Positions 6,701 through 17,400 of a stretch of DNA of 64,000 nucleotides are shown here, piece by piece; positions within the stretch are counted from its first letter, which is position 1; each line of letters begins with the position of its first letter. The position numbers and the translations under genes were made by a program. Source of the stretch: Hydrolagus affinis (lineage: Eukaryota); the NCBI GenBank assembly GCA_012026655.1, contig JAAILG010000132.1:1-64000 (forward strand), written 5' to 3'. The notes beneath the pieces were generated by a model. The model was not told the DNA's origin. It searched no databases and saw only the letters and a program-made list of their open reading frames with translations.

Positions 6701-7358
6701 ATTAGTGGGACATTACTCCAGGTTCAAGTTGCACTCGAGGTTAACCTTCTGTGTTCTTAAATCTCTTCCATTTAACATGGAAGAGTTTTGAAGAATTGTG
6801 CACGTTAACCTCGGGCAAAATAATTTTTGTAATTAGATTGTTTCAGTTAGTTATTGCTGATTTAATACAATTACAAAATGATGTGACCCTGCCATAAAAT
6901 TACCATATAATGTGTTCTAACTGGGGCGGAAAGCAGAATGGGACTGGGTCAGTTGGAGGCACACGGCATGAGCTATGTTCTGAACTCTCTCAGTGCTTAA
7001 GAGGTTAAATCAATAATCAGGTAATCTGCGATTGTAGTGCAAATGTAAAAATGAAGAGCTACAAAGGAAATTGCTGCTGAATCTTGACATCCTATGATTT
7101 ATTCCTCTTTTTTAAAAAAATTGTAATAGATGAATTTAAGTTTCTGCCACCTCTTGTAAGAAAGGCACTTTGCTCCTTGGTGGCCCAAGTCTTTTGTTTT
7201 CTCCCTTAACTTACCCTGCTATGATACACAAGTCATTGTCCACTAAACCAAATCAATTACATCTTGTCCTTTCTCTTTTTTTTCTGTTTCCCTCCTTGCT
7301 ACCCGTCTCCACAATGGTGTGTGGAAAAACTACTAATCCCTTCACAATGTGCTCCTAG

Positions 7359-7370
7359 GACTTCAACTCT
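7359..7370 (+). CDS. sowah: Sowah-like ankyrin-repeat gene, 12-nt microexon (GAC TTC AAC TCT = DFNS)
   Basis: ctcctAG|GACTTCAACTCT|GTAAGT. No AG from 7233 to 7356; long pyrimidine tract at about 7262-7310; branch-like TACTAAT at 7331-7337; TGC at 7350-7352. The peptide fits the SOWAH motif DF(M/I)(S/T)GFTALHW. Confidence 0.85.
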
Positions 7371-8732
7371 GTAAGTACCAGTGGGACAAAGCCTAGACCC
7401 AGCTGAGTCTCCCTCTGAGACAAACTGAGCTAAGCCGATTGTTGCTAGAGGGATGGCAAGATGGTGACTGATCATGTGGTCGTTTGCATCAAGCCGAAGT
7501 TCGGCTTTTATCTCAGGGAGTACGAGATATCTGCCCAACAAGGACAGAAGGGGGAATTCAGTGGAGCTACGCCCTTCCTCCATCTCCTGAGCCTTTTAGG
7601 AATTAGTTGGTGGCAACTTGAAAATACGTCAAGTTATGACTTATTTTCATGTATGCATCATGCACGGAGAGGAGACTTAAAATGGAATAAACCAAATAAG
7701 AAAGGTGGCGGAACTGAGAACATAATAGCAGCACCTGCATACTGCGCCACATCACTTTTGCTATTGTACAGAAATGATTTGAAAGATCTGCAAACCGAAT
7801 GGCCAGTAAAATTATCCTGAAAAACCCATGTTGTCAGCCTAAGCAATTCTAACCAGTATTCTCATTCGGGGATTCAGGATGAGATTTAAACAACTAAAAC
7901 AAACCTCAATCAATTTGTAATTCTCATTGAAATCTTAACTACCTCTGTCTCCCCCACGCCTCCATCATTATTCTTTATAACTTGAGTTTGTGGGATACTT
8001 TCACTTCATTTCTTTTTGCTGGTGGCACTTGACAGTCATCGTTGGTAAGGAGTCCAAGATATTGGTAAGCAGATACCCTTATTAACACTGAGACACAATT
8101 ACTTTAATTGTATAAAATAATTAGAAAGAAATGACATTCTGTAGATTTAATTAGACTTTGAATGCCAATGTCCTTTTTTAACACTTATGCGATGGATAAC
8201 ACTCAGCTTATTCCGCAGATTGCATAACAACACTTTACAAGGCAGCCATAAACTATACGTATCAGAAGTCTTTCTGCTTTATCTGTTGATTTTAGCTGCA
8301 GCATCACGGGGGGAATCAACAAAAACAGCAATAGCAGAGGTAGAATTGACTAAACAGCCCTGCGTTTGAGAGGGGGAAAAATATCCCAAATCCTTGCTCC
8401 TTATGCCTATGCAGTAAGTCCTGCTGGAAAGCTCATACATTTGTAAGGATTTTGTGTAGGGATAGGATCCAGCTTGACTGAGATGCACTCTTCCCACATT
8501 CAAATAGTCAGCCAATACTGATGGTTGAGGCTTATTTATGATGAATAATGGTCATTTTGACAATAGGGGAACAGTGCTTGAAGAACTGTACTCAATACCT
8601 TGAGGAAACGGGAGAAAATTGGAGAAGAAATATTCATGGAGATCATATTTGAACATTGTTAATAAATGCCACAATGCAATTACAACACAACATATCTTCT
8701 GCTTTACAGAAGTACATGGGATACAGCAGTAC

Positions 8733-9043
8733 GTGGAGTCCTGTAGCTCAGTGGTCAGAGTGCCTTACAAGCATGAGACCTGTGTTTGATTCCAGGCAGG
8801 GCAAAACCTTGGGCAAGTTTCCTTACTCCACATACCTACTAATAATCCCTCAAAAAATGCTAATAAATTGGTCATTTCAATTCACGACTGTTTGTGGGAC
8901 ACTGCTGTGCGCAATTGGCTGACGCATTTAGCCCACAAATATAGACAATTCACTTTACAGTATATTCTGTGAAGCGCTTTGAGACATCTCGAAGATATGA
9001 AAAGCACTACAGTATACCAAATGCAAGGATTATTATTATTATT
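8733..9043 (+). mobile_element. Full-length tRNA-derived SINE with L2-like tail and (ATT)n end
   Basis: tRNA-like head (A-box tagctcagtgg, B-box-like gtttgattcc), body gtttgtgggacactgctgtgcgcaattggctg, tail gtgaagcgctttgagac...aaatgcaaggattattatt. Second full copy at 58473; many 5'-truncated copies. Confidence 0.9.
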
Positions 9044-13900: not shown

Positions 13901-14423
13901 ATGTTCGGACAGTTTTTGTGTGACAAGATACATAGTTTCTATTCAGCTATGGGGAGATTATTGGTTACTATAGTTTCACTAATGCTCAATTGAGGCTGAT
14001 GGCTAAGCTGAACAGAATAGGTTAAAAGGTGCCGATGTTCAGACCCACGAAACCACATGTTGAGAGTCAGGGACCAAACAAAACAAAGAGCACATCTCTG
14101 TGTTCTTTGATGTCTTCTCTGAGCGTTGTAGAGTGAGAAAGAGAGAATACTCTGCTCTTGGATTGGATGGCATGATGGGACCTGTGACAATGCTTCAGTG
14201 TGAAGATACAATCTAATGGTCCAAACAAAATAGAGCAATAAAAAGCATTCACCACTGTGCGTATTTATTTTAAATTTGTTGCTCATAACTTTCCCAAACT
14301 AATATCTTTCCTCTTTATCTTGCATTGCCCAAACCAAAACACTTTATACCCACTGTGTGACCTGGCCTGTTGGAATCACTTTACAATTGCTGGACTAACT
14401 GTCTGTACTGCTACATAAATCAG

Positions 14424-14426
14424 TTT
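14424..14426 (+). CDS. sowah: Sowah-like gene, 3-nt microexon (TTT = Phe)
   Basis: aaatcAG|TTT|GTAAGT. No AG from 14246 to 14421 (176 nt); branch-like GACTAAC at 14393-14399; TGC at 14409-14411. Supplies the F before TALHW. Confidence 0.82.
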
Positions 14427-17400
14427 GTAAGTATGAGCCATCTGTGTTGATTTCTTTTTATGTTTATTTAAATTCTGATGTCAAATAAATTACACGTTTC
14501 TTTGCACCATCGGTTATGAGAGGGGCCCGATTTAATATTGAGCAGCATGGCTGCATCATCGAAAGGCAGGCATCCGAGATTACGCTGGTGTTCTGCAACA
14601 TTGCTTTATATTTGTGGCTGCAGCATGTGCAAATGATATTCTAAGAAATCAGTTCTCGAGCAGAGGTAAAGCTGGAGATAATACTAGTAAATGAAGGAGC
14701 AGAGTATATTTCTAATTATAATGATTTTTATACAAACGTTTACAAAAAAAATCAGCAAAGAAACAAATACTGCCCACAGGCAAGGCTTGAATCAGTATTT
14801 TTCCAACAAAATTGGAGGCATTGTTACTTAAATGCCTCTCATTTCTTCTTCATACTTTTGACAGAGTTGATGGCAGAATACAATATATTGAACATTTTTT
14901 TATTGGAACTCTGTAAAGACGTACTCTGGCATAGAAATGAACCACAAAATATAAGTGGTAGCATAAAAAAATATTAAATTATGCTTGGCCTGTTTTTGAA
15001 TGCAAATGCTCATTTGTGCTGGGCCTCAGGCAGTAAGCAGTTACCACCAGTGCTAATATATATTAAATCATGCCTATTGTCTCTTAGTTCATGTTTAATT
15101 TATATCCAGCAGGCTCCAAGTCATAGTTTTCAGATAAGTATGTAATTTGTACTAACTGTGCTCACCAAGTAAACACTTTTAAGAAAATTCAGCCTTTATG
15201 GAGAAGAGCCCCCAAACAATAGGACTGGGATTGCTGTCCTTGAATTTGAGTCTTTAGTGACGCATCAGTGGGCTTACAATATGCAGAATTACCAGGCATA
15301 TTAATGACCAGATGCAGTACCAGCCCATTCTCCTCACCAAAATCTTCTTATGCAAATACCCCATGAATCCAGTTCAAAGGGATGGTTTCAAAATGAGCTA
15401 CTACACACATTCAGATGAGCCCTTTCACTGCCTGGGAGAGGGCCTGTAAAGAGAGTGACATGAGAGAAGTTTGGACACTTGTTTTTATAACTGAACATGA
15501 TCCTGTTATCATAATCTTATACTAGTTTCTTGCTCAGTTTGGTTTTTGATTTCTAAGTATTTAACAGAGGGGATAATCTCAGCTTTTGTACCACTATGTA
15601 CTGAATTTGGCACCAAAGAGAAATTGCTGTGTATGGTTGCATGTTTAAACCATCTTTTAAATTGAGAAAGGTTTTGTGTTGAACTGAATAGTCTTTGGAA
15701 TTTGATAACCGCTTGAATTTTGTATTAGAATATTGTAAAAAAAAACTTTTGTAAGCAAATTAATTAAACTTTAAAGTTACAGTTGGTAAGATTAAATACA
15801 TGTTTCTCCCCATGTATGGAAAGTACTAACTGAAATACATTGAATAATTGAATTCAATTTATCTGAAAGAATTTTTTTTTTTAAAAAGCTATCTTGCTTT
15901 ATAAACATATTTGAGTTGGAGTAAAAATCAACTACCCATAAATGGATTAGCTTCTTCTGAATTGCATTCAATCGTTAGGTTTTTAATAGATCCTGTTTGC
16001 ATAATGTGATAAAGAAGTGACTGATAAAATGTATATATTTTTAACCATTTGAATACAAGTGAATTGATTTGAATAAGCAGGTTGTCAAAAAAAAGTGCAA
16101 GAAAACCTTTAGCACATAATCCAGAAGAGTGTAGAATTCAGCTACTAAAATGAATACTGTACCTTGGTTTTAAATACTGTGATAAAATTAACATTGGGCG
16201 TGAATAAAAAGGTACAATCAGCCTTTCCTTTCATAAAAATAACATTGTCAGGTTAAAAATGCTAATCTGAAAGATAAACCAATACCAGAAATTAATATAC
16301 AGCACTTTGTGATTAAGCAAATACGTTATCGTTTATTGTTGCTATGCAACTTGTTTTTGAGTGCTTATTTCACCACGCTATTATGTTTTGCGTTAATCCT
16401 GTTTGCAGCTGATTTCCAAGTTCAATGCTTTTTTCTAAACTTGTTCTGTGGAAGTGGAAATATTCTGTTTCAGTTCTCTCTTCTCCGCAATCTAATTGCG
16501 CCATTGATTAGTATTAGTATTATTACATCCTTGAAAAATGTTCATTGTCAAACAAACACTTTGAAATTATTTTGGAGGGGTGGAGGGAAACCCAAGTGTG
16601 ATTTAGTCATAGTGCAGTTTTAGAATAATTGATGATTTAGAAGTGTAATGTAAGTGAAAGTTGATGATTTAGTGGCCACTGGTGGCAGCACTTCACAAAG
16701 CATTTACAATCTATTCTCTCATTAGATGGGTGCTAATAGACAAGGGTTGTAATCATACAGTTACTTGACAATGCATTTTACTGCTGCAAAATTGAATTTC
16801 TACCGAAAGTGAAGGGTAAGGCCATTCTGTGCCCCCTGTGTGCTGGAGATGGTAAACCTATGGGTTGACAGAGTTAAAATCCCACACAGTGAAAGTAGAT
16901 GCAATCTGTTCACTGCATTCTGAATACGAGATGCTGTGTAGCAAACGCTTGAACTTGACAGACGTCTAAAACTCATTTTCATTAAAACCCTGGAGACACC
17001 ACCTTTCATAAGGACTCCACATACAGAATACGTCCTACTATACTCCATTTAAAAATATATAAAAAATATACACGCAGACTTACAGGCCGATACATCAAAC
17101 ACACTTTTTATATGGTTGGTGAAAATAAGACAAATCTGGGTCTGTCAATGCAGTTTTATACATTCTGATACAAGTTGGGGTGTGTATACAGCCAGAACAA
17201 TGCGTGGCATACCAAATAAGTGAGTTGGGGAGTTCATGAAAATGTCGTTAATCTGTCTCACTTAATCCTTCTCAATTGATTCCAATGTGTGTGTAGGTTT
17301 GGAGAATTGATTCTCAAGCAAGATGTCAGTCCACTGTGCTGCACTTGCTTGATAGCCATTACCCGCTGATCAAACTTTGTCTGCAGGGGGGGAAAAGAGT

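Follow-up and report, generated by a model that had tools for sequence, protein, structure and literature searches.

Single-codon exons in series have already been annotated in Drosophila melanogaster sowah (FBgn0036302), in which FlyBase tags microexons of 12 nucleotides (nt), 3 nt (GGC), 3 nt (TAT) and 6 nt on the minus strand, together with a further 27-nt microexon (PMC8042270 Table S4). The 12/3/3/6-nt exons are listed as constitutive (percent spliced in, PSI = 1; PMC8042270 Table S5), and sowah goes unmentioned in the main text of the same paper. Here we examined a window of 64,000 nt from Hydrolagus affinis (contig JAAILG010000132.1, hereafter C132, positions 1-64000; the other contigs cited, C218, C1168 and C1068, belong to the same genome) and found in it a 12-nt unit and two 3-nt units that encode, in this order, DFNS, Gly and Phe. 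We think it probable that these are three consecutive in-frame microexons of an Irx5-linked Sowah gene, spliced into nearly every transcript, and they likely spell a loop and the G-x leading into the first full ankyrin repeat. As in fly sowah (ME119, ME3, ME2 and ME19), a 12-nt exon is followed by Gly and then by Phe, for which the fly has Tyr, with kilobase introns between them; the fly differs in encoding the second loop in one 6-nt exon, as opposed to two 3-nt exons here, and in its 12-nt peptide.

Models of the elephant-shark (Callorhinchus milii) gene LOC103176098 hold DFNS, Gly, His and Gly as in our window, and the Phe codon was in none that we saw. The SRRM3/4 (eMIC) neural microexons share with the Sowah units a long AG-free zone, an extended pyrimidine tract, a strong branch-point motif and a length that is a multiple of 3, according to excerpts of PMC8797185, which gives a microexon code of long AG exclusion zones, UGC and CUAAY, and of PMC12871342, which proposes a lengthened branch-point-to-AG region for neural microexons. 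Unlike the microexons portrayed in those excerpts, the Sowah units are serial, encode core residues of the fold and are likely constitutive, and their Gly exons have no nearby UGC. RPS24 has three microexons in a row (3, 18 and 22 nt), including, as here, one of 3 nt; in the available portions of PMC12207440 and PMC11162997 that run is alternatively spliced and longer, whereas Sowah has back-to-back single-codon exons, twice. Finally, the accessible parts of PMC5803294, PMC12311624 and PMC3342872 describe an Irx-Sowah block with an intron-containing Sowah tied to Irx and intronless copies elsewhere, as here, and state that Irx enhancers reside in the introns of fly sowah and that tetrapods replaced the gene by intronless copies. 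No paper treating sowah and microexons together was found in our literature search, whose library contained neither Maeso et al. 2012 nor the bulk of the subscription literature. The layout is already known, being annotated in FlyBase for the fly and with its residues partly present in shark RefSeq models, and will surprise a specialist only modestly; the present locus adds a member to the intron-containing, Irx-linked Sowah genes, its units presumably working like other extended-acceptor microexons.

The microexon series in the window and in a paralog

The 12-nt unit (DFNS, phase 0) lies at 7359..7370 on the plus strand, as do all window features given below, between a TAG acceptor and a GTAAGT donor; a paralog encodes DFTS at this place and the elephant-shark ortholog models DFNS. 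Its pyrimidine tract is set back (19/20 pyrimidines at 7278..7297, 61 nt upstream), and its acceptor has an AG-free zone of 126 nt, with CTAAT at -23 as a branch-point candidate. The second unit, GGG (Gly; 10955..10957; GGC in fly ME3), has an AAG acceptor, a GTAAGT donor, a tract of 19/20 pyrimidines at 10834..10853, 101 nt upstream, and branch-point candidates at -81 and -56; its residue is the G of the ankyrin motif G-x-T-x-L-H. A competing GAG stands ahead of it at 10920..10922; splicing there would lengthen the exon to 35 nt and shift the frame. The third unit, TTT (Phe; 14424..14426; TAT in fly ME2), has a CAG acceptor and a GTAAGT donor that matches the U1 consensus at 8/8 intronic positions; CTAAC at -26, a branch-point candidate, and UGC at -15 (together 14395..14411) fall within an AG-free zone of 178 nt. 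The introns after DFNS, GGG and TTT measure 3584, 3466 and 13108 nt, the last ending at an 87-nt exon at 27535. A first-pass annotation made from the letters of the window had proposed the 12+3+3 units with these positions, codons and order, introns of 3584 nt, 3466 nt and 13.1 kb, and the GAG ahead of the Gly acceptor, all of which we confirmed at the DNA level. Missing from its series was a second pair of 3-nt microexons, CAT (His; 30727..30729; His is also in ortholog model X1) and GGG (Gly; 31020..31022), which belong to the second loop and sit 290 nt apart. We are nearly certain that the DFNS and Gly units are exons, and the Phe unit is very probably one as well.

A second intron-containing Sowah gene, on C1068, carries DFTS (C1068:19672), GGG (C1068:20308) and TTT (C1068:22411) in the order of the window gene, with introns of 610, 624, 2100 and 3707 nt around them, and also has His (CAT, C1068:28040) and Gly (GGA, C1068:28727) as 3-nt exons after an 87-nt exon. 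This compact Sowah, which together with the Irx homeobox that follows it takes up C1068:2036-48003 (L004-L008), extends over ~31 kb when measured from its first identified exon and holds all five microexons. Because the sister gene shares the layout and the fly gene is already annotated with it, we regard the layout as real and very old, and because the paralog's splice units sit in short introns, long introns are not required. The ~20 kb of pre-mRNA that the first-pass annotation held to be needed is incidental, the corresponding spacing being 624, 2100 and 3707 nt in the paralog and ~3.1 and 1.1 kb in the fly. Introns of 3.5, 3.5, 13.1 and at least 12.6 kb flanking 18 coding bases could point to a special long-range mechanism, either recursive splicing or RNA bridges over kilobase introns, but the paralog's versions of the same introns make this very improbable. 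Between AG and GT there are, moreover, 3 or 12 coding bases whose residues are present in homologous proteins, which sets the units apart from recursive (zero-length) sites, where GT follows AG directly. The first 60 plus-strand blastn matches between the paralogous loci (paralog to ~20.9 kb) were multi-copy repeats, none of them over DFTS or the first Gly exon.

We then asked how readily such units arise by chance. The motif AG-NNN-GT(A/G)AGT occurs in the window 6 times on the plus strand and once on the minus strand. From the 12-nt unit to the 87-nt exon there are just 2 of these sites, Gly and then Phe; the remaining 4 plus-strand sites are the second-loop His and Gly and 2 decoys. The decoys, 4550-4552 (GGT) and 56839-56841 (CAA), are AG-NNN-GTAAGT sites whose pyrimidine tracts are weak and whose AG-free zones are short (5 and 37 nt), and are probably due to chance. 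In 500 approximately dinucleotide-preserving shuffles, the ordered series DFxx, Gly, Phe/Tyr appeared in 0/500, as did the His-then-Gly series, and Gly followed by Phe/Tyr alone appeared in 5/500 with GTRAG donors and in 0/500 with GTAAGT. The view that 20 kb of intron simply yielded splice-like motifs can draw on the 13 AG-NNN-GTRAG sites of the window's plus strand and on the GGT decoy; against it stand the shuffles, the independent repetition of the series in the paralog, and the pairing of a 17/20 tract with an AG-free zone no shorter than 50 nt, present in 9/10 true sites (five each in the window gene and the C1068 paralog) and in 0/135 decoys from 528 kb, with thresholds set post hoc. 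We consider the chance reading effectively refuted. We also rejected a single 6-nt Gly-Phe/Tyr exon, as there are 0 such sites between the flanking exons in both paralogs, and the alternative Gly (3) and Phe (2) candidates in the same interval of the window had weak donors.

Acceptor layout and proposed splicing mechanism

The ten microexons were compared with the 135 decoys and with ordinary Sowah exons (n = 8). Their AG-free zones ranged from 32 to 178 nt, with a median of 83.5 nt as against 9 nt in decoys (p 1.7e-7) and 31 nt in ordinary exons (p 7e-4). The best 20-nt pyrimidine run reached 17-19/20 and was set back by 22-101 nt, while the last 20 nt before the microexons were no pyrimidine-richer than those before ordinary exons (median 11.5 vs 14). 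Donors were GTAAGT (9/10) or GTGAGT (1/10), and the exonic donor positions of the DFNS, GGG and TTT units matched at 0-1 of 3. UGC was found within 30 nt of 6/10 microexons and 0/4 Gly exons, and also of 2/8 ordinary exons and 2/5 decoys. The first-pass annotation had expected that such a run would need unusual splice-site pairing, an expectation we could drop, as the acceptors fit the lengthened stretch from branch point to AG that is known from other microexons.

These features suggest how so small an exon might be recognized. U1 would bind chiefly to the GTAAGT of the intron, given how poorly the exonic positions fit its consensus. U2 and U2AF65 would be placed tens of bases upstream of the acceptor AG, so that the spliceosome would measure the distance from branch point to donor (~40-130 nt) and not the 3 nt of the exon, and the AG would be reached by scanning the AG-free spacer. 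Set-back tracts and AG-free zones likely keep U2/U2AF and U1 from colliding while they define a 3-nt exon. By spliceosome geometry a 3-nt exon is too small for the factors of both ends simultaneously, so the flanking introns would be removed singly. The kilobase lengths of these introns likely reflect an Irx3/Irx5 enhancer landscape rather than any need of the microexons.

An Irx-linked, intron-containing Sowah gene

The nearest named proteins were elephant-shark Sowah proteins, and the ortholog is LOC103176098 (SOWAHC-like, RefSeq XP_007887669.1 and isoforms). Exons matching it at 65-92% identity were found at C1168:26807, 52398 and 67639 and at C132:27535, 34378, 62081 and ~68100, and ortholog exons at 76-89% identity on the minus strand of C218 (38282, 35648 and 4784). 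A SOWAH winged-helix domain (PF25877) occupies the N-terminus of the ortholog proteins, whose first 152 residues match the C218 exons (76-89%); these exons probably belong to the same Sowah gene. In the window, the 87-nt exon (27535..27621; ~90% identity to LOC103176098) encodes an ankyrin repeat from TALHW (Pfam Ank E 5e-6), a 73-nt exon with a phase-1 donor (34378..34450; Pfam Ank, ortholog match) encodes one from GYTALH, and a 96-nt exon (62081..62176; ~91% identity to the ortholog) closes the ankyrin region with the frame kept. Joined together, the 8 window exons are stop-free and reproduce the ortholog's phase-1 junction. Going by exon order, C218, C1168 and C132 would join as one gene, which, if the contigs adjoin, would span at least 180 kb and have an intron of at least 12.6 kb ahead of DFNS.

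C218 also bears a TALE homeobox (45026-45145, plus strand) whose best named matches are Irx5, and the first coding Sowah exon lies 6.6 kb from it on the opposite strand. With the Sowah 5' exons and Irx5 on one contig and on opposite strands, Sowah starts head-to-head with Irx5. In the elephant shark, IRX-5a is on a sequence of 18,121,395 bases and LOC103176098 on a sequence of equal length. The head-to-head arrangement fits the published Irx-Sowah genomic regulatory block, which Maeso et al. (2012, Genome Res 22:642) reportedly described. A start head-to-head with Irx5 is also the position of the mammalian long noncoding RNA CRNDE in an excerpt of PMC7844700. CRNDE may descend from Sowah, either its promoter or the gene itself; among the matches listed in our literature search, no paper connected the two.

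With at least 8 exons in the window, this gene is no intronless SOWAHA-D retrogene, a class that has a single coding exon. The same genome contains 2 intron-containing and 4 intronless SOWAH copies, the latter as long open frames on other contigs (L011-L014); 3 of the intronless copies read DFxxG(F/Y) contiguously, and the fourth was unmatched by the search pattern. The C1068 Sowah is followed after 14.5 kb, on the same strand, by another Irx homeobox, probably that of Irx7. Searches of the genome gave 7 Irx-type homeoboxes and no third intron-containing Sowah. Short interspersed repeats were seen in the window at ~8739-9044, 20898-21013, 37588-37705, 51057-51234 and 58499-58775, and are common to C1068 and C1168 at ~75-85% identity.

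Ankyrin loops in homologous proteins and alternative readings

We examined 47 Sowah proteins, 28 of which span the first loop and 29 the second. In the first loop we read DFTSGF (15 proteins), DFNSG (3), DFTSF (2), DFTSG (1), DFTS (2), nothing (2) or other letters (3), and in the second His-Gly (10), His (7), Gly (1), nothing (10) or other letters (1). All five units were present in 3/3 Logan-assembled proteins (P0009, P0027 and P0028; 16 contigs, the longest ~2.5 kb), whose contigs, judged from their size, appear to be spliced transcripts. With His and Gly included, the repeat has 33 residues and aligns gap-free to the solved ankyrin-1/2 structures; the Gly-Phe pair provides the G-x of G-x-T-x-L-H. 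The AlphaFold model of the elephant-shark paralog, poor overall (mean predicted local distance difference test score, pLDDT, 53; 61-87 for the ankyrin repeats), has DFTS and His-Gly lie in the loops that connect helix pairs, with Gly-Phe beginning the next helix; no beta-strand is assigned to these loops, which are putative beta-hairpins. In a phmmer search of the 39-residue frame against 1.84 billion representatives, the best 150 matches were all long multi-ankyrin proteins.

Alternatively, the units might be regulated cassettes of the SRRM3/4 type, with tissue-specific skipping editing the ankyrin loops residue by residue, which we consider unlikely. Long AG-free zones, CTAAC/CTAAT and the UGC near 6/10 microexons do match the code given in excerpts of PMC8797185, every unit preserves the frame, and RefSeq holds single-codon-skip isoforms for skate, white shark and elephant shark. 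Those isoforms, however, may be alignment artefacts (RefSeq model P0002 is without a Gly that UniRef V9KW91 (P0014), from the same species, has), skipping disrupts the 33-residue repeat, the orthologous fly exons are constitutive, the Logan proteins carry all five units, and UGC is absent from the Gly exons though found by some ordinary exons and decoys. It is similarly doubtful that single codons are skipped by tissue, and equally so that the five small units act together as a combinatorial switch, making tissue-wise single-residue changes in both loops of vertebrate Sowah with the Phe exon controlled by SRRM3/4; in that reading the gene might also be the protein-coding ancestor of CRNDE.

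Several points weigh against our preferred reading, that of three microexons spliced into nearly every transcript of an Irx5-linked Sowah. Phe is absent from 3/3 loop-spanning elephant-shark ortholog models (DFNS-G-TALHW), none of which has the full series. RefSeq paralog models include forms without single codons (P0023, P0024 and P0029; 10 having neither His nor Gly and 7 His only), which may reflect real skipping. The GAG lies 32 nt upstream of the Gly acceptor, the branch points are motif guesses, the contigs were joined by inference, and the enhancers invoked for the long introns are putative here. No cDNA or read of this Sowah gene was found; 4 sequencing-run matches to the 87-nt exon, with no RNA run among the matches listed, are contigs from related organisms that continue across both of its splice sites, and they are therefore unspliced and uninformative on junctions. 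As an acceptor GAG ranks last, which would allow scanning to run past it, and when it is ignored the Gly AG-free zone is 121 nt. The first-pass annotation had ranked the Gly unit as the weakest; its AG-free zone is indeed the shortest (32 nt), yet Gly is present in the elephant-shark ortholog models and it is Phe that they lack. Those Phe-less models could mean that this gene makes use of DFNS and Gly alone and that TTT is a silent or rarely used remnant. Their testimony is not decisive, because RefSeq does drop such codons, as P0002 and V9KW91 illustrate, and a remnant is decidedly unlikely given that TTT has the longest AG-free zone and a full intronic donor match and that the paralog, the fly and each of the 3 intronless copies read have F/Y at this place.

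Microexons spliced into nearly every transcript of an Irx5-linked Sowah remain our preferred reading, and they expose an annotation failure, in that shark and teleost models drop codons, run into the intron or split the gene. Such faults were frequent among public shark, ray and teleost Sowah models (P0003-P0005, P0013, P0015-P0017, P0020-P0022, P0026, P0030, P0187 and P0188), which often drop microexon residues. If the combinatorial switch were true, the Sowah binding surface would be tuned one codon at a time. Back-to-back single-codon exons whose order is kept from fly to fish are about the smallest units that the spliceosome can handle, and ten such acceptors in two paralogs, in short and long introns, form a natural test set for the definition of 3-nt exons and the order of intron removal.

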